This document shows, piece by piece, positions 44,950 through 61,478 of a stretch of DNA of 64,000 bases. Under the pieces are notes generated by a model that searched no databases, was not told where the DNA came from, and saw only the letters and a list, made by a program, of their open reading frames with translations. The stretch lies in the sequence record OR067838.1; one strand, given 5' to 3'. The number at the start of each line of letters is the position of its first letter. The stretch's first letter is position 1. The translations under genes and the position numbers were made by a program. Source of the DNA: Escherichia phage KKP 3954.

Positions 44950-46728
44950 GTGTCGCACATTATAACTAAATATGGATTTGATGTTGATCTTAGCAAGGAA
45001 GGACATACAGGTTGTCCGCGCTGCATGAAAAATGGCAAGGATCGCTCTCGTAATAACCTGATGGTTTACGGATTAGATTCTAATGGAGAGCATAAAGGTG
45101 CTAAGTGCTTTGCGTGTGAATACACTATTCCTAGCGTAGAATGGTTACGAGAAAATGGTGAAGTTTTAGAAGAAGAGGAGGAGATTGTGGGTTCGGAATT
45201 TAATAAACAGATTCATCGTAAAATTGTTCAAGAAACATCAACCAACCCACGTGGTTATCGAGGCATTAAAGAAAAAGTTTCATCTTTCTATGGTGTTCGT
45301 TATGAATACCGTCAGGAAGGGGATCAGATGGTAGTAGAAAGTTGTTTATATCCGACTACCATCGGTAAAGAATTGGTTGGTTTTAAGCGTCGTATTCATC
45401 CTAAAGATTTCAGTAAACCTATTGGTCAAGTAGGTAAAGATGTAGATCTTTTTGGACAAATTCGTTTTGCAGACCGTTCTCATACTGTTGTAATTACAGG
45501 TGGTGAACACGATGCTCTGGCAGCTTATCAAATGCTATCTGAAAACTTGGACAGTAAATATGAGCTTCCAGCCGTAGTAAGTGGCACAACTGGTGAAACC
45601 AGTATGTATAAACAAGTTCAGGCACAATATCCTTTCTTTGAAAAATTTAAGAAGATTATTGTTTGCATGGATAACGACAAAGCAGGTAATGAGGCATTTG
45701 AAAATATTGTTAAGGTGCTGCCTCGTAACAAAGTCTACCGTATGCAGATGGATCTTAAGGATGCCAATCAGTATCTGGAAGAAGGCCGTGCAAAAGATTT
45801 CGTAAAAGCTTTTTGGAGTGCTCGTCTATACACCCCAGCAGGTGTTTATGCTTCTAATGTCTTGTATGAAGCTGCATTGGAATGCTTGGAATCCAAGATG
45901 ATTACCTTGCCTCCTTTTATGCGTGTTGCTGCAAACATGTTGGGTGGTGGTTTAGTAGAAGAAGAGATTACAGTCATCCTGGCAAAGACCAGTATCGGTA
46001 AAACTTTGATGGTGAACGAGATCACCAAACATATTATTGTTGCACACCCAGAACATACCCTAGGTATTCTGTCCTTGGAAGCGACTTATAAAAAGTATTC
46101 TCGTAACCTGTTATCCTCTTTCCTACACATTCCTCTACACAGGAAAACACCGGAAGAGAAATTTCAAATCTTGGAAGAGAATAAAGAAAAAATCCTAGAT
46201 TTTTACGAAAGAGAAGATGGATCACCACGTTTTTACGTGTGTGATGATCGTGGAGCAGATGTGGAGTCTATCAAAGAAAAAGTTTTGGAGATGATCATCT
46301 ATTTTGGAGTAACAATTCTTGTTATCGACCCTTATTCTGATTTGCTTTCTGGTATGGATGTTCAAGCCCAGGAAGAGTTAGCAACATGGTTGAAGCGAAT
46401 CATGAAAGAGTATGCTATAACTATTATCGTCATCTCACACGTTAAGAAGTCAGCTAATGGTGGCAATGAGCACTTAACAGAGGACGATGCAATGGGTAGT
46501 AGTTTCTTGGCTAAAGGTGCTGGTATTACCTTGGCTTTGGAACGAGATAAGGCTGCTGAAGATCCTGTAGAACGTAATACAACTCATTGCTTTATCCTAA
46601 AAAACCGTGAGTTCTCGGAGACTGGTCCAGCAGGGCAGTTTTACTATGACATTAGAACTGCAACTCTTCACGACAAAGAGCAGTATTTTAACAACCCTGC
46701 TAACTTACCTACGGATAGCAACTACTAA
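44950..46728 (+). CDS. Bifunctional DNA primase-helicase (T7 gp4-like: Zn ribbon, TOPRIM, DnaB-like helicase)
   Basis: CPRC..C..C zinc ribbon, TOPRIM blocks VVITGGEHD and DNDKAG, Walker A AKTSIGKT, Walker B ILVIDPYSD. Confidence 0.8.
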   Translation: MSHIITKYGFDVDLSKEGHTGCPRCMKNGKDRSRNNLMVYGLDSNGEHKGAKCFACEYTIPSVEWLRENGEVLEEEEEIVGSEFNKQIHRKIVQETSTNPRGYRGIKEKVSSFYGVRYEYRQEGDQMVVESCLYPTTIGKELVGFKRRIHPKDFSKPIGQVGKDVDLFGQIRFADRSHTVVITGGEHDALAAYQMLSENLDSKYELPAVVSGTTGETSMYKQVQAQYPFFEKFKKIIVCMDNDKAGNEAFENIVKVLPRNKVYRMQMDLKDANQYLEEGRAKDFVKAFWSARLYTPAGVYASNVLYEAALECLESKMITLPPFMRVAANMLGGGLVEEEITVILAKTSIGKTLMVNEITKHIIVAHPEHTLGILSLEATYKKYSRNLLSSFLHIPLHRKTPEEKFQILEENKEKILDFYEREDGSPRFYVCDDRGADVESIKEKVLEMIIYFGVTILVIDPYSDLLSGMDVQAQEELATWLKRIMKEYAITIIVISHVKKSANGGNEHLTEDDAMGSSFLAKGAGITLALERDKAAEDPVERNTTHCFILKNREFSETGPAGQFYYDIRTATLHDKEQYFNNPANLPTDSNY

Positions 46729-47261: not shown

Positions 47262-48056
47262 TTGAGCAAGTTGAACACACTTGATCAATATTACACTAAC
47301 CCCGCTTATGCGGGGTTCTTATGTGATAAGATCAAAGAAATTTTTGGAGAGGAAGCTAACTACGTAGAACCATCTGCGGGAGAAGGAGCTTTCTCTTCTT
47401 GTTTTAAAAACATAACTTCTTTTGATATTGACCCTAAGTTTGAAGATTGTATTGAGGCAGATTTTTTAGCTCAATCTGTTGAGTCTGTTGGTAGTGTAAC
47501 TGCTTTTGTCGGTAATCCTCCATTTGGAAAAAATGCTAGTCTTGCCATTAAATTCTTTAACCATTGTGCTGAAATGCTGGATAACGAAGGTGGTATTTGT
47601 TTTATCTTGCCTCGCACATTTCAAAAAATCTTTTTTGCACACAAACTAAATCCCCATATGCATCTTCTTTACGAAGAAGAATGTCCAAAAGGATCTTTTA
47701 TTCTTCATGGAGAACCTTGGGATGTTCCTTGTGTATTCCAGATATGGATTAAACGCAACGAGAAGCGTTCTCCCGTTGTTTTAGGAGAGAATCGACTATT
47801 CGTATTAGGTAACAGTAAAGACTACGATATAGCCGTTAGGAGAGCGGGAGCAAGTGCAGGTAAAGTGTTATCAGAAGAAGATTCTTTATCTGAAGCATCT
47901 ACCTATTTTTTAAAAGCCTTGACTTCTGATCTTAAAACGCGTATCATTGAGGCTTACCCGTTACTTAAAGCTGAAGCTAGTAAAACTGCGGGAGTAAGAA
48001 GTTTAAGTTTAAAAGAACTTCAGTGGGTTCTGGAGAACATTAGAAAGGAGGAATAG
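47262..48056 (+). CDS. DNA N6-adenine methyltransferase (gamma-class-like)
   Basis: Motif I-like VEPSAGEGAF followed by motif IV GNPPFGKN; TTG start with SD AAGGAGG. Confidence 0.65.
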   Translation: MSKLNTLDQYYTNPAYAGFLCDKIKEIFGEEANYVEPSAGEGAFSSCFKNITSFDIDPKFEDCIEADFLAQSVESVGSVTAFVGNPPFGKNASLAIKFFNHCAEMLDNEGGICFILPRTFQKIFFAHKLNPHMHLLYEEECPKGSFILHGEPWDVPCVFQIWIKRNEKRSPVVLGENRLFVLGNSKDYDIAVRRAGASAGKVLSEEDSLSEASTYFLKALTSDLKTRIIEAYPLLKAEASKTAGVRSLSLKELQWVLENIRKEE

Positions 48057-50653
48057 TGAGTAAGTTTACATGGGATATTGAAGCAAACGGATTGTTGAAT
48101 AATGACACTATTGATTATTTAGCTAGTCCTTATCGTCTCAAAGACACATTTCAAATGCACTGTATTGTCTTAGAGAACCATGAAACAGGAGAAATAGTAG
48201 CTTTCCACGATGGCCCTAAATACATCTTTGATGGGCGTCCTTATGAAGAGTCAGATGGTAAATACACATATGTTCTTAAAGAGTATGTGGCGCAAGATTA
48301 CACACATTTTCAACTAAAAGATTTCCCAGACTTTATTAATCATGAAGGTTATTTTAAAGATAAGCCTGAATATCTGGTTGAAATGGCTGTGGCTCACAAC
48401 GGTATCAACTATGACTGGTTGGCTACAAAACTGTTTTATGGTTTAGATTACAGTGTTAAATATAATACGTGGGGCAAAAATAAGGTAAAACTTATTGACT
48501 CCTTGATTTTGAGTAAAGTGTTAAACCCAGATCGAAAGATTGAGGGCAAATCAGGACATAGTTTGGCAGCACTTTCTCGAAAGGCAGGGGGTGATGTAAA
48601 AATAGATTTCCGTAAAGAGATTCCAGAAGAAGATCGATTTAAGACTTTTGCTGCTGATATGCTTTATTACTGTATCTATGACAACAAAGCCAATACGAGC
48701 GTATATAATTACCTTATGGAAGAATGGGGTGATTATGATAAATGGGAAGGTCCATTTGAACTTGAACAACGTGTAGCAGACATTATTACACGCCAGGAAC
48801 ACCGTGGGTTTGCTTTTAACATGAAGCAAGCAGAAGAGAACCTTGCTTTTTTGGATGCAGAAATGGAGCGTCTTCGTTTACTCGTTGAGCCTATTTTGCC
48901 ACCTAAACCAGCAACAAAAGGTTATCTTAAGGCTTTTATTCCACCTAAGTTGCAAATTAAAAAGAACTTAGAGCCAACTAACCATATGATCAATTTTGCT
49001 AAGAAACATGATGGTCATTTGGAAGAGAGGGATGGAGATTGGTGGTTAGTGATGTTGGGGAAAGAATGGAAACTGCCAGTTGCAGCAGATGAGCCTTTGT
49101 GTGATCCTAATATCCCTGCAACATTGAACGATACTACCCATATTAAAAACTGGCTTGTAGGATTAGGTTGGGTACCGTCTGAATATAAAGATAAAGACTT
49201 GACTCTTAAATCTGGCACCAAGATTAAAAAGAGCGAGGAAGAACTTCAGAAAGGTATTCGAGCTTACGTTGAGCAAACTCTATCTTCTAATTTTTGTCAG
49301 GATCGTTGTGATCATCTGGAGTGCACACCGGAAACCTTGGAGAGGAAGATTCAAGAGCGTATAGCAAAAGGTAAAGGTCGCGGTCTTAAAGTATTGACTA
49401 ACCCATGTTTTACCAAAGGTCAGGAAAAAGAAATTTGTCCTAACCTGCAAGCTTTGGGTGAGAAATTTCCTTATGCTACACAGATTGTAGAATACTTAAC
49501 GTATAAACACCGTAGGAACTCTATTTTAGGTGGTGGTGCCGATTGGGAAGAAGACGAAGAAGATCAAGAATACGATAAAGGTTTCTTAGCCGCAGTAAGG
49601 GCGGATGGTCGTATTCCTACCCCAGCCGCTACATGTGATGCTGCAACCTCTCGTATGAAGCATAGATCTGTAGCTAATATTCCTCGTGTCACATCTTTGT
49701 TTGGATGGGAGATGCGTAACTTGTTTGGTGTAGAGGTTCCTAAATACTTCCAGATTGGCTACGACTTCGACTCTTTGGAAGCAAAAATTGAATCACACTA
49801 CTGTTGGCGGTACGAGCCGGAGCCACACGAATATTGTAACGCTCTGTTGTTAGAGAAACCTAACGATGTTCACACAATGATGGCAAAACGTATCACTGAA
49901 ACTATTGGACGTAAATTTGAACGTAGTCCTGCTAAATCTGTTAAGTATGGTATTACCTATGGTGCACAAGCCGACAAGGTTGCTAAAACAATTGGTAGCG
50001 ATAAGTTTACAGGTCAGTTGGTGTTCGATGCTTTCTGGGAAGCTGCCTTCCCACTGGCACGTCTTAAAGAACGTTTAAACGATTTCTGGGTTAAAACTGG
50101 TAAACAATATGTTTTGGGTATTGACGGTCGTAAGGTTCCTACTCGTTCTGCTCACGCGATTCTTAACTCTTTGTTCCAAAGCGGTGGGGTTATCTGTGCT
50201 AAACGTGCAATGGTTATTTATGACGACATGATCGAAGAAGAAGGGCTAAGTGTTGACTTCTTTAAAGATGACTGGAAGAATAAAGACTTCGTGCAACAAA
50301 TGATTGCATACCACGATGAAGCCCAGCTTGAAGTTTCTCGTAACCTTGTAGAATTCAAATGGTTTTCACCTGAATCATTAGGTTGGAAGAAAGTAGACGA
50401 TCCTGAAGAACAAAAGAAAATTGATAAAGAATGCCTTGCTAAAGTCGAAGAATGGAAGCATAATAAGGAAAAAGAGACAGGGCAAATTTGGGCTAACATT
50501 CATGAATCTCCCAAAGGTGGATGGTTTACAGCCTATAGTCGGGCAGGTGAACTTGCTGCTTTAGCTGTTACTAAGGCTGGAGAATTTTACAATCTTAACG
50601 TTCAGCTTACTGCCGGATATGATGTGGGTAATTCTTGGGCGTCCTGTCACTAG
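48056..50653 (+). CDS. DNA polymerase, family A, with N-terminal 3-5 exonuclease domain
   Basis: 865 aa; Exo I WDIEANGL; motif A DFDSLEAKI; motif B RSPAKSVKYGITYG; motif C YHDEAQLE. Confidence 0.85.
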   Translation: MSKFTWDIEANGLLNNDTIDYLASPYRLKDTFQMHCIVLENHETGEIVAFHDGPKYIFDGRPYEESDGKYTYVLKEYVAQDYTHFQLKDFPDFINHEGYFKDKPEYLVEMAVAHNGINYDWLATKLFYGLDYSVKYNTWGKNKVKLIDSLILSKVLNPDRKIEGKSGHSLAALSRKAGGDVKIDFRKEIPEEDRFKTFAADMLYYCIYDNKANTSVYNYLMEEWGDYDKWEGPFELEQRVADIITRQEHRGFAFNMKQAEENLAFLDAEMERLRLLVEPILPPKPATKGYLKAFIPPKLQIKKNLEPTNHMINFAKKHDGHLEERDGDWWLVMLGKEWKLPVAADEPLCDPNIPATLNDTTHIKNWLVGLGWVPSEYKDKDLTLKSGTKIKKSEEELQKGIRAYVEQTLSSNFCQDRCDHLECTPETLERKIQERIAKGKGRGLKVLTNPCFTKGQEKEICPNLQALGEKFPYATQIVEYLTYKHRRNSILGGGADWEEDEEDQEYDKGFLAAVRADGRIPTPAATCDAATSRMKHRSVANIPRVTSLFGWEMRNLFGVEVPKYFQIGYDFDSLEAKIESHYCWRYEPEPHEYCNALLLEKPNDVHTMMAKRITETIGRKFERSPAKSVKYGITYGAQADKVAKTIGSDKFTGQLVFDAFWEAAFPLARLKERLNDFWVKTGKQYVLGIDGRKVPTRSAHAILNSLFQSGGVICAKRAMVIYDDMIEEEGLSVDFFKDDWKNKDFVQQMIAYHDEAQLEVSRNLVEFKWFSPESLGWKKVDDPEEQKKIDKECLAKVEEWKHNKEKETGQIWANIHESPKGGWFTAYSRAGELAALAVTKAGEFYNLNVQLTAGYDVGNSWASCH

Positions 50654-51070: not shown

Positions 51071-51289
51071 ATGCGTAAATTAGTGAGCTTTAATGTTTCA
51101 ATTCTTGTTGATGAACAAAATGAAGATGTTATTAAAGGTCTTGCAAATAAGATTGCAGGTGGAATGACGGAAGCTGAAGTGTGGGAAGAATGTGCTCGAC
51201 TTTATGAGGAAGGTGTTATTGAGGTCTTGGGGGATGAGATTAATATGGACGATGTTGTAAAAGTAACTGTGGAGCGTATCAATGACTAA
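51071..51289 (+). CDS. Hypothetical protein (acidic)
   Basis: ORF track; SD AAGGAG. Confidence 0.55.
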   Translation: MRKLVSFNVSILVDEQNEDVIKGLANKIAGGMTEAEVWEECARLYEEGVIEVLGDEINMDDVVKVTVERIND

Positions 51290-51875
51290 ATCAAAACAAA
51301 TCAATATTGCCAAAGAGATTCTTACCGTATTAAAGATCGCTGATCCTAATTCTGTCTTGGCTGGCGGTGCTGTTCGTGATTGGCGTATTCTTGATATTGC
51401 TGGACGTGATCTGGATTTCTACACATCCCTTCCTGCACATCGATCAGAAGAGCAAATACAAGAATTGATTGCATCTGCTTTGATGGGAACTAATGTTCGT
51501 AAACTAGGAAACAAAGAGGCTTCTGACAATTATGAGGGTGTTACTGGTCTTAAACACGTTTTTGAGTTTGAACGTGATGGTCAGCTTTGCAACCTTATGA
51601 TTATGGAACCAAGCGTAATGACAACCTTTCTAAATGAGTTTGATCTGTCCATCTGCCAGGCTGCATTTGATGGGAAGGATTGCTATTATTCTAAAGATTT
51701 TGAAACAACCTTGGAAACAGGGATCTGCTTCTTGCACAAAGATGTTAGAGAAGATGCCAAACACGTTATTAAAATTGCTACACGTTTCCCATATCTTCGT
51801 TTTGTGAAAGAGGTTAAGGTTCCACGTCCACCTCAAGTAGATACCAGATTAGAAGAAGATGATATTCCTTGGTAA
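51282..51875 (+). CDS. Nucleotidyltransferase-like protein (CCA-adding enzyme / poly(A) polymerase head-domain-like)
   Basis: LAGGAVRDWRI ... RDLDFYT resembles the GGxVRD ... DxD nucleotidyltransferase signature. Confidence 0.45.
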   Translation: MTKSKQINIAKEILTVLKIADPNSVLAGGAVRDWRILDIAGRDLDFYTSLPAHRSEEQIQELIASALMGTNVRKLGNKEASDNYEGVTGLKHVFEFERDGQLCNLMIMEPSVMTTFLNEFDLSICQAAFDGKDCYYSKDFETTLETGICFLHKDVREDAKHVIKIATRFPYLRFVKEVKVPRPPQVDTRLEEDDIPW

Positions 51876-51920: not shown

Positions 51921-52313
51921 ATGACTGAACGTTCTAAGATAGCTGTTGAAACTGTTTATGGAAACTATACCAGTTTAACACTAGTTGAGAAAAATGTTGT
52001 AGGTCTTGACAACTCTTTTTATTTTCAGATTTTGGTTATTCAAGGTGGAAACAAGAAGCTAACTGCTCGTGTTGAAGCATCTGAAATAATTGAAACCACT
52101 GTTACAAACAAAGAATTCATTTCACTGCAAGATACAATCCGAAACGTTATAGACGAAGAAGGCAAAGCTGCCACAATTAAACTCGGAGGTTTTCCAGTGC
52201 AAATAGTTCATTTCCCTAATGGTGAAATTGGAGTTGGAATAGGTAAAGGTAAATACCTGTTAGAGCAAGATGATATGGAAAGACTCCGCTCTTTCTGTGC
52301 AAAATTAATGTAA
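51921..52313 (+). CDS. Hypothetical protein
   Basis: ORF track; promoter-like TTGACA at 51883; no obvious SD. Confidence 0.45.
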   Translation: MTERSKIAVETVYGNYTSLTLVEKNVVGLDNSFYFQILVIQGGNKKLTARVEASEIIETTVTNKEFISLQDTIRNVIDEEGKAATIKLGGFPVQIVHFPNGEIGVGIGKGKYLLEQDDMERLRSFCAKLM

Positions 52314-52329
52314 TGTAGAGGAGATAATA

Positions 52330-53217
52330 ATGTCCGTAATTAATACTGAAACTGATCGTAAAGGCAAAACCGTAACTTATGCAACTGGTATCGTAGACTA
52401 CGTTAAACTGGATAAATTCGCCGAACCTAAAACTTTTCATTGGGAAGGAAAAACGATTGTTTCAACTCACCGAGCTTCTCTTGTTCTGAAAGAGAAAGGT
52501 GCTAAACCAGATGAGAAAGGTGTTTGGATTTCTCTTGGTGACATTGAACTGAAAGAAGGTTATGAAAACCTGCAAGTCAAAGAAGGTGATAACTGGATCA
52601 CTATTGAAAAAGGTGTAGAAGTAAGTATTGATATTGATCGCGTTGATAATAAAGGCGGTAAAACTTACTACAATACTAAAAAATCTCGTATTACAGTATT
52701 GTCTACCGATGGTGTTCAGAAGTCTAACAAATCTTCTGGCAATAAGGGTTCCAACGATGCTGCTCCTAAGCAGTCCTATAAAAAACGTGATACTGTAGGT
52801 CTGGAAACTGGTCACGCAGTAAATGGTGCACTGGAACTGATTCGTAATGGTGTTAAAGGCGATGCTTTCGATATCGCTGGGGTTGTTCAATCTGCAACTG
52901 TCACACTGAAATCGGAAATTGCTGAATCTCGTGGCGTTGATATTAATGATTATGATCTTGGGGCATCTGTTGGTCACGCTATCCTCAATGCTTGTAAAGA
53001 CCATACCGTTAAGACTGTATCTGTAGAAGATCTGATTGATTCTGCTCGTAAAGTTCTGGCTCTGTCTGATAAAGTTGCTGCTGCCATTCGTGGTTCCGCA
53101 GAACAGCCTAAGAAAGAAGAGAAGAAAGAAGTTAAGAAACCTGAACCACAACCAGAACCAACTCCAAGTAATCAAGAAGAACCTCCAATGGACTTCGACG
53201 ATGATATTCCATTCTGA
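52330..53217 (+). CDS. ssb: Single-stranded DNA-binding protein with host-SSB-like acidic C-terminal tail
   Basis: C-terminus ends MDFDDDIPF, the protein-interaction tail of bacterial SSB; Pro/Glu/Lys-rich linker before it. Confidence 0.65.
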   Translation: MSVINTETDRKGKTVTYATGIVDYVKLDKFAEPKTFHWEGKTIVSTHRASLVLKEKGAKPDEKGVWISLGDIELKEGYENLQVKEGDNWITIEKGVEVSIDIDRVDNKGGKTYYNTKKSRITVLSTDGVQKSNKSSGNKGSNDAAPKQSYKKRDTVGLETGHAVNGALELIRNGVKGDAFDIAGVVQSATVTLKSEIAESRGVDINDYDLGASVGHAILNACKDHTVKTVSVEDLIDSARKVLALSDKVAAAIRGSAEQPKKEEKKEVKKPEPQPEPTPSNQEEPPMDFDDDIPF

Positions 53218-53248: not shown

Positions 53249-53279
53249 GAAAAGGGAACCCGCAAAGGTTCCCTTTTTT
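53249..53279. terminator. Bidirectional rho-independent terminator at the convergent junction between the replication module and the tail genes
   Basis: AAAAGGGAACC..GGTTCCCTTTTTT hairpin flanked by A-run and T-run. Confidence 0.65.
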
Positions 53280-58083: not shown

Positions 58084-61000
58084 TTAGGTTGTTGGCACAT
58101 CTACTACTGGCGTTGGGCGAATAACCGCAGTATTACCTACAGAAACATTACTGGAATCATTAGGTATGGTTTTAATTCTAACTCCAGCACTTGTAGGCGT
58201 TACAATTGGATCTGCAATGTCTATTTTAACTGGGTTAGTCCACGTATCATTATCTTGATAAGGTGCACGAGTAATAACTGTGTCCAAATCTGCTCCACCT
58301 ACGCCAGCACCAGGAATACGGATACGTGTCCCTGCTGACAGAGGGTAATGATACAACCAAGAAGCATTTGTTGCTGTCCCGTTAGGAGTCAAGTTCTGTG
58401 TCAGGAAGGTATCTCCTGCCTGTGTAGCTCGAATACCGAAAGCTGGGATATCTGGAATATATGCCCCACTTGTTGTTACAAGGAAGAACGTATTATCCGC
58501 CTTGACTATCATATCACCTTTGTCAAACTCTTTCCCTGTTGGGAAATGCATTCCATCAATGTTTCGACTAGGATTAGGCTCTAAGTAATAAACTTTGCCC
58601 GTTGTCCCTACAATAGCTCCAATACCACCTGCGATATTGGTATACATATTAGCTTCAACATTACAGTTGACACGATGAATATCCGAGTAACGGCAACGGC
58701 TCCACTGTGGACGACCAGTAACCATCGTCTTGCCATCTGGGTAACAGTTTACGTTAACCATTTCAAGAACAGATTTTTCTCTACGGAAGAATCCATCATA
58801 AAATGTCCCTGGACCAGATTCAGGTTGACCAACACAATCGAAGATATTACAGGTAATGTTAGACATTGAAAGCCAAGAAGCTATACCGAACAACTGCAAT
58901 GCAGCGCAACGAATATTTTCAAAGCTAACTCTGTTTTCATAACCTGGACCAGCGGAAACTCCCGCAAAAACACGCCCAGTTTTGGTGTGAATGTTACGAA
59001 CAGAATAGTTAAAGCATGGATTTGAAGGTCTGCCCTGTGCCGGAACTACCGGATTACCTTCTTCGTCCAGAACTGCGTTAGTTCCCCACTCCAAATAAAT
59101 CATACGGATATTACTTGCAAGTGTGCTACCGTCTGTTTTAGGCTCTCCATAAACACCGTCAATCGTAAAATCTTTACTTCCATACATTACAACTGCGCCA
59201 GTTGCCAAACCTGTCCCAACAGATACAGTCTGGTCTGGATCGCCATGAATGTTTTCGATAGAGATATTACGACCAACTTCTACATGGACAATCTGACGAC
59301 AACGTTTTGCAAAAACGTTACGAATTGTAATATTCTTGCAATATTGATCATCAGGGATTCCGTAACCATATGGTCCTTTACCAGCTACACCGATACCGAT
59401 ACCCCAGTTGGACAGAGGAATAGGAGCGTTAGTCCCATCGATATTAGACAGGTAAATATTCTCAATCACACAACCATCGTCATAATGTTTATTGATGACG
59501 TTCAGTTCTATTGCATCACCTTGCATGTCCATGAAGGTAAGGTTACGGAAGACACCACGTGTTACTGGTTCCCCTGTTCCTTGTTGAAGGATGCCATACA
59601 ACCCGTTTTTAAAAATACAGTTATCAATTTCAAAAATACCTGATATTGGGTTGCCTTGGAATACCAAGCTACCAACTTGACCTGCGCGAGGAGCACCGTC
59701 CCACAAACAATCGAACATGCGCACAGCACCACCCCAATACATAACACGAGAGTTACGGAAAGTTGTGCCTTCTACTGTAGCATTTTGCACACGATAGTCG
59801 CGTTGACCACGGAACACACCCCCACGCAAAGTGATACCTTGAATATCAAAAGAGCTTGTCGTGAAAGTCATATCGCAACCGTAAGCATCGAGAATCTTGC
59901 TTTTCGAAGCTTTTGCTGCTAACAGTGCCGCTTGGAAAGCTGCTTCTGGTGTGGTATATGTTGTTGTGTTGTTAGCAAATTCTGACAAGTAGACAACATC
60001 GAATAAATCGTTGTATGTTCCACCACGAGGGGTTAACAGTCCTTCTGTATTGGTCAGAACCCATGCATTTGGACCTAATCCACCGCTTGTCTCCAATGTA
60101 TCAGAGGCCAAAATACTTTTTGGTAAACTTCCAGCCCAACGATAACGACCAGCACCACGTCCAATCGTCTGATTTTTAGCTGTCAGAGTTACGTTATTAC
60201 CAAAGCTTGTAGGCAAATGAACAAACTGTCCACGTTCAACAGCTAGTGCAGAAAGATCTACAGACCCCCCAGAATAAGTCATTACTCCAGAAACAGACAA
60301 GGATGTTAAAGTTCCTGTGATGTTAGGAGGTAATGTGTAGGAAGACTGTGCTACTGGATCATACAGAGCTTTAATCCCTGTTAACGATTGACCTGCTGTT
60401 GCGTAAGCCACCTCATCATCTAACAAACCATATTTACGAGCAATAGTTTGCAGAGGGACTTTATCCATGCTTTCTGTTAGTTCTTCCGTTTTTGTTTCTA
60501 AACTAACAAGACGGTTCTCTAGATTAGGATCTGTATCTGCTGAAGCTACGATTTTACCAATATAAGCAAAAAGCTTGTTTGGTAGTCCTGTTGCAGGATC
60601 GTGTCCCAAAGGTTCAGATAAGATGATCTTACTATCTTCTATACGGAAAGCTTCTCCCAGAACCTGAATAACACCGTTGATAGTAACAATAGCACTGTCA
60701 AAAATATAAGGAGGACTAATTACTGTTTCATAACCCGTTGCACCAGAATATACCCACGGGGTGACTTCTGTTGCTAATTGTTCTGTTTTCAGTCCCCACA
60801 ATACCCAGTTATTATCCCCTACTGGAGAATACCTTGCATAGGGATTGGGTTTACCAATGTAGCATTAGGAGCATAATAATAACCGCTCAATACCCCATTC
60901 TGGAAATAACGCAGTTGGTTAAAAACCGTTTCATTTGTGCCTTGCGCCCAATCCAATGGACTTTTAAAGAAAAAGTTGTCAACAAGGGCTTTTCTCAGGG

Positions 61001-61139
61001 TTGGTATCAACCCTGATTCTGTTTCAATACTCTCTGTAGCACTTCCATTAATAACATCATGGAGTTGGTTAGACGAGAAAATAACCAGATCTACGCCCTG
61101 TTCAAGAGACGTTGCTGGATATGTTGGGAATGTTGCCAT
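58084..61139 (-). CDS. Tailspike-like protein (probable beta-helix body), annotated as one gene from track ORFs 60819..61139 (106 aa) and 58084..60801 (905 aa)
   Basis: The 106-aa ORF has SD+ATG; the 905-aa ORF begins on TTG with no SD, 17 nt after the TAG and in the -1 frame, which is open back to 60864; composition fits tailspike/depolymerase proteins. Confidence 0.45.
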
Positions 61140-61142
61140 TAA

Positions 61143-61478
61143 TTACCCCTTATTCTGTATACGTTTAACTATGTCATCTAGCATCATTTGAATAGTAGCA
61201 TTCTTGAGGTCCATAATCTTTTCAATCTTTTGCTCAAGAGTGTTATTATTTGCCATTAATGTAGAGTTAATTTGATTTAGCATCTGGGTAAGTTCGGCTT
61301 TAGTTGCATAAGTTGATTCAACAAAGACCAACTTCTTCTCTAGCTCTCGACTTTTCTCCTCCATTTCCTCAAGATCAGAGCCGAATTTATCCATTTTTTG
61401 TTTGAAAAAGAACCAGATGACTCCGATTAAAGGGATGATTGCATCCTTTGCAAGTCCCCATGCTTCTTGAAATTCCAT
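61143..61478 (-). CDS. Small protein with N-terminal TM segment and coiled coil (tail-associated)
   Basis: ORF track; hydrophobic AIIPLIGVIWFFF then heptad-like region. Confidence 0.5.
   Translation of the reverse strand: MEFQEAWGLAKDAIIPLIGVIWFFFKQKMDKFGSDLEEMEEKSRELEKKLVFVESTYATKAELTQMLNQINSTLMANNNTLEQKIEKIMDLKNATIQMMLDDIVKRIQNKG

Follow-up and report, generated by a model that had tools for sequence, protein, structure and literature searches.

A predicted stand-alone class II nucleotidyltransferase head domain with an SSB-like C-terminal tail among the replication genes of phAPEC8-like Escherichia phages

Class II tRNA nucleotidyltransferases, represented by the structures 1miv, 3h37, 4wby, and 3wfo, are proteins of about 370 to 450 aa that combine a nucleotidyltransferase head with a neck and with the body and tail domains that measure and hold the tRNA. 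Homologs of the Escherichia coli enzyme, Cca, carry the domains PF01743, PF12627, and PF01966 across about 412 aa. E. coli poly(A) polymerase I (PcnB; 3aql), of about 465 aa, has a C-terminal RNA-binding region in addition to its head. A stand-alone head is encoded by Streptococcus pneumoniae (NP_344798.1; 2la3, 191 aa); this protein is cellular and has no known SSB-like tail or replication context. In phages, short genes of PHROG 10174 and PHROG 1614 (PP47 gp28, Q19 gp24, phi92 gp158, and ICP1 ORF223) belong to the same family as the gene described here or are its immediate structural neighbors. They share with it a product of about 170 to 230 aa, a phage-only distribution, a location in the replication (middle) region, and annotation by homology only. 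The Pectobacterium Autographiviridae representatives (PP47 gp28 and Q19 gp24) have been discussed as "tRNA nucleotidyltransferases" on homology and modeling grounds only (PMC7693777). A literature search for biochemical or genetic characterization of family members recovered homology-based annotation only (PMC7693777).

The window analyzed here, a stretch of 64,000 nucleotides, derives from a Phapecoctavirus (phAPEC8-like, Stephanstirmvirinae) E. coli myophage. On its plus strand, an ATG-initiated open reading frame (ORF) at positions 51282 to 51875, stop codon included, encodes a 197-aa stand-alone head domain of the class II nucleotidyltransferase type, as predicted from the sequence and a structural model (see below). 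A ribosome-binding site, GGAG, can be read directly from the sequence 7 nt 5' of the start codon (51271 to 51274, plus strand). The start of the gene overlaps the stop of an upstream 72-aa ORF (51071 to 51289), which suggests that the two are translationally coupled. Matches to sigma-70 promoters near the gene numbered 18, with 17.6 expected by chance. The surrounding 2.7-kb region is 97 to 98% identical to dozens of phAPEC8-like genomes, and the protein is 96 to 100% identical to annotated gene products of about 64 Phapecoctavirus genomes. These copies are labeled "putative tRNA nucleotidyl transferase / poly(A) polymerase" or "nucleotidyltransferase" in GenBank. Given the annotated counterparts, a match to PHROG 10174 ("nucleotidyltransferase"; E = 3.3e-63), and the 281 groups of relatives described below, the ORF is a genuine gene and not a chance reading frame; a second match was to PHROG 1614, which bears the same name (E = 2.9e-11). 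The gene and its homology-based label are already public. A preliminary description of this DNA had overlooked both the existing GenBank annotation and the SSB-like C-terminal tail of the product.

Relatives found with HMMER in a library of 1.84 billion proteins fell into 281 clusters at 50% identity, nearly all of them 175 to 230 aa long. As lengths of about 200 aa are typical of the entire family, the phage protein is short by design and not truncated. It retains the family core, namely, Q6, A10, L14, L17, AGGA[PV]RDW, DxDxY, Y84, F120, F140, K164, and FP169-170. Ten longer relatives (283 to 416 aa) were scanned for domain fusions and contained no relevant domain; for one longer relative, P0141, the sole match was a weak, sub-threshold one to PF23202 (ZNF598 PAH). 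Among 185,579 bacterial and archaeal species, each represented by one genome, only eight loci were detected, all of them on MAG contigs, and BFVD contains many similar phage proteins of 167 to 230 aa, including proteins of Autographiviridae. On the basis of these MAG-contig loci and BFVD phage proteins, the family is phage restricted, and it is accessory. No record named rV5 or PVP-SE1 was among the tblastn matches listed.

The fold of the protein was evaluated with an AlphaFold model built from a 114-sequence alignment; an earlier input of 11 close homologs had given a pLDDT of 64. The highest fold comparison scores were obtained for E. coli poly(A) polymerase (3aql; 11.9), the Aquifex aeolicus A-adding enzyme (4wby; 11.2), the Thermotoga maritima CCA-adding enzyme (3h37; 10.8), a "Poly A polymerase; tRNA processing enzyme" (3wfo; 10.3), and the Bacillus stearothermophilus CCA-adding enzyme (1miv; 10.3). 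The isolated "CCA-adding enzyme head domain" of S. pneumoniae (2la3), which is 13% identical in sequence to the phage protein, scored 9.3 with a root mean square deviation of 3.0 Å, and family X polymerases, TUTases, and MenT1 scored 7 to 9. Foldseek concurred with this class II ranking. Structure prediction, which the preliminary description had named as a way to overturn its assignment, thus places the protein closest to class II enzymes rather than in an unrelated fold. The model and the family alignment together identify the protein as a class II (CCA-adding/poly(A) polymerase type) Pol-beta head domain, a call that holds because the GG and DxD signatures are invariant in 114 relatives. 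Defense-type nucleotidyltransferases (MenT, MNT-HEPN, and CD-NTases) gave no defense-profile match and no fold match closer than class II, and PADLOC returned no match for the nucleotidyltransferase or its two downstream neighbors. Plant PYL1 receptors, which appeared in a single-sequence search of the PDB, were rejected as spurious weak matches (E = 0.16).

Beyond the head, the model contains only one helix (residues 160 to 168) and a short strand. The preliminary description was therefore right that body and tail domains are absent: the protein stops at residue 197, and it has no neck past the first helix. Its similarity to CCA-adding enzymes also stays below the membership thresholds of profile databases. 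The PolyA_pol profile of Pfam (PF01743) scored 15.5 bits against a cutoff of 23 and aligned over profile positions 3 to 51 of 126, that is, over motif A only, and the NCBIfam CCA equivalog TIGR02692 scored 12.2 against a threshold of 438.8. Unlike class II tRNA nucleotidyltransferases, the phage protein is thus a sub-threshold match to these profiles, is encoded amid replication genes, and bears an SSB-like tail; unlike PcnB, it is a head only.

Conservation was examined in 114 relatives of 20 to 83% identity. Both parts of the GGAVRD ... DLD signature, on which the preliminary description of the 197-aa ORF was based, are present in the translation, as G28 to D33 and D43-L44-D45. The first half of motif A, the NTP-binding glycine turn G28-G29-A30-V31-R32-D33 (51363 to 51380, plus strand), includes two invariant glycines, G28 and G29, and A27, A30, R32, D33, W34, and K164 are each conserved in more than 90% of relatives. 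The second half, D43-L44-D45 (51408 to 51416, plus strand), supplies two putative metal-binding carboxylates, D43 and D45, both invariant. A probable third catalytic carboxylate, E95 (51564 to 51566, plus strand), lies on the strand formed by residues 90 to 98; its assignment follows from the fold and not from superposition, and an acidic residue (E or D) occupies position 95 in 76 of the 114 family members. Taken together, the fold matches and the conserved catalytic residues indicate that the protein, with its class II head, is very probably a catalytically competent nucleotidyltransferase.

The remaining class II motifs are less easily recognized. When the family profile was compared with CCA enzymes in the PDB, motif A was the sole stretch that aligned by sequence (E = 3e-4). 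In a profile-profile comparison with E. coli Cca (hhalign), motif A alone was aligned, with a probability of 34%, and Smith-Waterman alignments to the same enzyme were no better than shuffles (z scores of 0.9 and 1.9). For the E. coli Cca side, the seeded homolog search returned enterobacterial sequences alone (at least 87% identity) and so yielded no diverse CCA profile. Because neither type of alignment was significant, equivalences for motifs B to D were assigned by eye, from order and spacing. The RRD tripeptide (motif B, ribose 2'-OH recognition) occurs nowhere in the 197 residues; its by-eye counterpart is E119-F120-D121, of which F120 is found in 98 and D121 in 35 of the 114 relatives. 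In class II enzymes, motif D (EDxxR) is the amino acid template by which CTP or ATP is selected. A motif-D-like stretch, E157-D158-A-K-H161-V-I-K164-I-A-T-R168-F169 (51750 to 51788, plus strand), contains the helix predicted for residues 160 to 168 and resembles by eye the motif D of E. coli Cca (EDPLRVLRVARF), although the local alignment (z score of 1.9) is not significant. Relative to the class II pattern EDxxRxxRxxRF, H161 would stand where the templating R is expected. Within the family, K164 is kept in 109, H or Y at position 161 in 108, and F169 in 97 of the 114 sequences, and E157 and D158 are not conserved. The phage protein departs from class II tRNA nucleotidyltransferases in lacking RRD and, by this visual alignment, in having H (H or Y in the family) at the position of the templating R of motif D; its family does not conserve the ED pair.

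The gene is embedded in a rightward replication operon. This operon includes a primase/helicase gene (44950 to 46728, plus strand), identified from the GenBank annotation of a 98%-identical phage and by iterated search, as well as a gene for a family A DNA polymerase (48056 to 50653, plus strand; Pfam DNA_pol_A, E = 1.4e-13; PHROG 17, E = 3e-111), which precedes the nucleotidyltransferase by four genes. Downstream follow genes for a 130-aa protein of unknown function (51921 to 52313, plus strand; PHROG 16560) and for a 295-aa SSB-like protein (52330 to 53217, plus strand). A strong hairpin terminator (53250 to 53277, minus strand) closes the operon against the convergent tail fiber genes. In Stephanstirmvirinae-type loci, the 130-aa protein is always encoded between the nucleotidyltransferase and the SSB-like gene (position +1 in loci L006, L008, L009, and L016). 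The order of polymerase, nucleotidyltransferase, 130-aa protein, and SSB-like protein is retained in phi92, despite an identity of only 37% between the enzymes.

A similar context recurs across the family. We sampled 80 IMG/VR loci, representing 38 lineages (<55% identity), and scanned 135 neighboring proteins of at least 120 aa encoded within four genes of the nucleotidyltransferase. The families encountered most often were 13 DNA primase/helicases, 11 or 12 DNA polymerases (PHROG 17 and Pfam DNA_pol_A), 10 or 11 DnaB-like helicases, and 7 Toprim proteins, along with HNH endonucleases and a 5'-3' exonuclease; the tRNA-related or RNA-repair proteins among them were one aminoacyl-tRNA synthetase and one Thg1. 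Iterated profile searches of the full 6-kb flanks detected a family A polymerase in 17 and a primase-helicase in 23 of the 38 lineages. One or both were present within 6 kb in 25 lineages and directly adjacent to the nucleotidyltransferase in 7. The family thus recurs as an accessory of T7-type replication modules, which pair a family A polymerase with a gp4-like primase-helicase. As a pointer to function, this position in the replication operon is circumstantial, since phage nucleic acid metabolism genes of all kinds cluster there.

In bacteria, the C-terminal tip of SSB is a docking element for SSB-interacting proteins, and in phage T7 both gp2.5 and gp4 dock on the polymerase through acidic tails that end in Phe. 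The phage nucleotidyltransferase ends in a tail of this kind, ...RLEEDDIPW-COOH, which resembles the SSB tip DDDIPF. Conservation and the model delimit an SSB-C-terminus-like acidic tip, E191-E-D-D-I-P-W197 (51852 to 51872, plus strand), and the mean pLDDT values of the last two ten-residue blocks (78 and 59) mark a lower-confidence linker and tip. With E. coli SSB (...MDFDDDIPF) and the T7 gp2.5 and gp4 tails, it shares a disordered linker, acidic residues, and a terminal aromatic residue; with the SSB tip, it also shares the Ile-Pro that precedes this residue. In contrast to SSB, the final residue is Trp rather than Phe, and the tail is carried by an enzyme and not by an OB-fold single-stranded DNA (ssDNA) binder. 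The C terminus of the 295-aa SSB-like protein, EPPMDFDDDIPF, is identical to that of E. coli SSB. Of the 381 ORFs of at least 40 aa obtained when the window was read in all six frames, only two, those of the nucleotidyltransferase and the SSB-like protein, encode an acidic tail that terminates in an aromatic residue.

The DDIPW tip is kept in relatives of 59 to 100% identity (as DDSFPW in one), and the linker varies in length and sequence. Compared with the other PHROG 10174 and PHROG 1614 phage genes, the Phapecoctavirus branch is distinguished by this conserved tip and by its place directly upstream of an SSB-like gene, with the 130-aa gene in between. Across the wider family, the last three residues fit [ILVM]P[FWY] in 8 of 148 clusters, compared with 6 of 751 neighboring genes (odds ratio, 7; Fisher p = 6e-4). 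The tip-bearing clusters are 22 to 35% identical to each other and end in, e.g., DDIPW, NDIPW, DGIPF, DTIPF, YIPF, PIPF, or SIPY. Of the six matching neighbors, at least four are accounted for by the SSB-like gene (at +2 of the enzyme) and by a primase-helicase-like protein (L082, +2); the six include two proteins to which no identity was assigned (L029, -6, and L079, -4). Under a stricter definition, an acidic tail plus a terminal aromatic residue, the feature was found in only 4 of the 38 IMG/VR lineages, which makes it a lineage-specific rather than a family-wide addition. The SSB-like tip is a recurrent but minority add-on, present in about 5% of family lineages, and therefore cannot define the core function of the family.

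From these observations, we infer that the phage nucleotidyltransferase is not a bona fide CCA-adding enzyme. The missing domains, the replication neighbors, and the SSB-like tail argue for a job at the replication machinery rather than in tRNA repair. The reading that we tentatively prefer, with somewhat less than even confidence, is that the protein transfers nucleotides to 3' ends independently of a template, in concert with the phage replication/recombination machinery, and is recruited, in this branch, by its mimic of the SSB tip. Such an enzyme would add nucleotides, with no template, to the 3'-OH of a single-stranded nucleic acid end. The acceptor might be a DNA or an RNA primer end at replication or recombination intermediates, and the tip could dock on sites that receive SSB tails, either on the phage polymerase/helicase or on host SSB partners. 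This is in line with the fallback offered in the preliminary description, a minimal nucleotidyltransferase acting on another substrate, which fits the evidence better than tRNA repair does. To our knowledge, however, all characterized class II enzymes act on RNA 3' ends and none acts on DNA, which counts against the preferred reading. Two details of the protein also sit uneasily with it: residue 95 is acidic in only two-thirds of relatives (76 of 114), and the tail ends in Trp in place of the canonical Phe.

Restoration of tRNA 3' ends, the first proposal of the preliminary description and the function implied by the GenBank label, is a weakly supported alternative that we consider unlikely. 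Under this explanation, tRNAs of the phage or its host that had been trimmed by host nucleases would have C, C, or A added back by the enzyme, so that translation could continue during infection. It draws on the fact that tRNA CCA-, CC-, or A-adding enzymes and poly(A) polymerase make up all of the nearest structures, on a by-eye resemblance of D121-L-S-I-C-Q and E157-D-A-K-H to degenerate motifs B and D, and on small nucleotidyltransferases such as MenT, which modify tRNA ends with no additional domains (PMC11541572). The absence of the body and tail domains and of RRD, the unconserved ED of motif D, and scores under the Pfam and NCBIfam cutoffs speak against it, as does the SSB-like tail, which has no obvious role in tRNA repair. 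As the preliminary description had noted, the window holds no tRNA genes (none were detected by ARAGORN in the 64 kb). It had also suggested looking elsewhere in the genome, and the related complete genome of phAPEC8 does carry 11 tRNA genes, at positions 59,143 to 61,148, about 41 kb from the nucleotidyltransferase gene. The presence of these genes in this phage type counts in favor of the tRNA explanation, but reading of each 3' end showed that CCA is genomically encoded in all 11, so that these tRNAs need no de novo CCA synthesis, and the host E. coli has its own Cca for tRNA repair. Moreover, Vibrio phage 1.264.O (47.7 kb) encodes a family member (E = 7e-14) and has no tRNA genes in its whole record; tRNA genes lie within 6 kb of the family nucleotidyltransferase in only 4 of the 38 lineages; and RNA-repair neighbors are nearly absent (the single Thg1 and aminoacyl-tRNA synthetase among 135 proteins). 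Thus, of the interpretation given in the preliminary description, the head-type nucleotidyltransferase is supported and the repair of tRNA 3' (CCA) ends is not.

A role in RNA tailing appears less probable still. Here the protein would be a minimal poly(A) or poly(N) polymerase that acts on host or early phage transcripts, or on replication primers, and alters their stability as PAP I does. Against this, the phage protein has no C-terminal RNA-binding region, the 38 neighborhoods show no link to RNA-decay genes, and an SSB-like tail suits ssDNA-bound complexes and not mRNA. Least probable of the explanations considered is a nonpolymerase function, either nucleotidylylation of a protein or small molecule (e.g., a host SSB partner or a defense signal) or action as a decoy whose tip blocks host SSB-interacting enzymes, since the GGxxRD-type motif A and the best overall matches are specific to class II enzymes of RNA 3' ends, the catalytic residues are invariant (against a pure decoy), PADLOC found no match, and about 95% of family lineages have no SSB-like tail.

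What appears to be new here is the failure of the protein to qualify as a CCA enzyme, the quantified linkage of its family to family A polymerases and primase-helicases, and the SSB-like tip. In hundreds of phage genomes, a short protein is called "tRNA nucleotidyltransferase" purely on motif A homology, and this label is undercut by the missing domains and motifs of CCA enzymes and by neighbors that belong to replication and not to tRNA metabolism or RNA repair. If the tRNA-repair explanation were nevertheless true of a head-only protein, it would inform the minimal requirements of tRNA 3'-end recognition. If instead the preferred reading of a replisome-tethered terminal transferase is true, T7-type replisomes would gain a new accessory activity, and the enzyme could bear on how phages tolerate nuclease-damaged DNA. 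PhiKMV phages have been described to use a ligase-dependent, NHEJ-like repair (preprint 10.64898/2026.09.21.753257); a functional link between that pathway and the nucleotidyltransferase is speculation on our part, as the preprint never mentions a nucleotidyltransferase. The most specific form of the preferred reading, which we regard as unlikely in its full extent, is that of a terminal transferase that consists of a head alone, is tethered by its SSB-like tip, and extends or caps the 3' ends of ssDNA or RNA primers; among class II (CCA/PAP-type) nucleotidyltransferases, it would be the first to act at a DNA replication fork. An enzyme of this kind could heal nuclease-damaged ends, prime end joining, or block host 3' exonucleases, and the T7-type modules in which the family recurs would then contain a replisome accessory factor that had so far gone unrecognized.

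The family A polymerase encoded upstream of the nucleotidyltransferase (48056-50653, + strand; GTG start) comprises 865 aa, compared with 1104 to 1110 aa in close relatives, namely, locus L006 (2039-5368), whose nucleotidyltransferase is 98% identical to that of KKP 3954, and phi92 (L003, 2522-5836). The coordinates of the PHROG matches imply that the polymerases of these two relatives carry a mid-protein insertion of approximately 245 aa, which is possibly an intein or a homing-endonuclease insert. The neighborhoods of the nucleotidyltransferase gene very often contain HNH endonucleases. The polymerase ORF is abutted by a 264-aa ORF with a TTG start (47262-48056, + strand), the end of which coincides with the polymerase start at position 48056 and which is labeled "DarB-like anti-restriction" in one GenBank record; it could encode a separate subunit or be part of a split gene.

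The nucleotidyltransferase homolog of Vibrio phage ICP1 (ORF223; L004, 4956-5550) is annotated as only 137 aa, matches residues 4 to 127 of the query, and is followed by an unannotated gap of 180 bp. The short ORF may reflect a split or frameshifted gene or a truncation past the beta-sheet of the head domain. PHROG 10174, the phage family matched by the enzyme, is likewise only 137 positions long.

Outside the window, phAPEC8 encodes a cluster of 11 tRNA genes (59143-61148, i.e., L088 9143-11148) for Met, Arg, Ser, Tyr, Asn, Thr, Gly, Gln, Pro, and Ile plus a second tRNA with a CAT anticodon, all 11 with a genomically encoded 3' CCA. A gap of approximately 1.5 kb without annotated genes is kept in two relatives, phAPEC8 (L002, 5512-7022) and phAPEC8_ev052 (L087, 6185-7728), and could harbor a noncoding RNA or an origin-like region; ARAGORN, run on L002 alone, detected no tRNA in it.

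Downstream of the nucleotidyltransferase lies a gene for a 130-aa protein (51921-52313, + strand; PHROG 16560) that had no match in Pfam, PDB, NCBIfam, or PADLOC. Synteny is strict in four lineages (L006, L008, L009, and L016), in which the gene is flanked by those for the nucleotidyltransferase and the SSB-like protein. In the phi92 record, the protein is described as similar to one of PVP-SE1; the matches listed for the nucleotidyltransferase included no record of PVP-SE1. At the operon end, a GC-rich hairpin with a 12-bp stem flanked by A- and T-runs (53250-53277) separates the plus-strand replication genes from the convergent minus-strand tail-fiber genes, and is likely a bidirectional terminator.

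The 295-aa SSB-like protein (52330-53217, + strand) is annotated as an SSB in relatives. Its SSB family matches are confined to the last ~40 residues, the final 12 of which (EPPMDFDDDIPF) are identical to the Escherichia coli SSB C terminus. Because the N-terminal 250 residues match solely PHROG 4477 (unknown function), with no OB-fold family match found, the protein may combine a tail that the phage copied from the host SSB with an ssDNA-binding body that is either unrelated or highly diverged. SSB-type tips also occur on further proteins in replication neighborhoods of unrelated phages: a 223-aa protein (gene -6 of L029, counted from the nucleotidyltransferase gene) ends in DKDIPW, and a 280-aa primase-helicase-like protein (gene +2 of L082) ends in DDRVPF. 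The recurrence of such tips suggests that an acidic stretch followed by I/V-P-aromatic serves as a docking code common to several replisome components.
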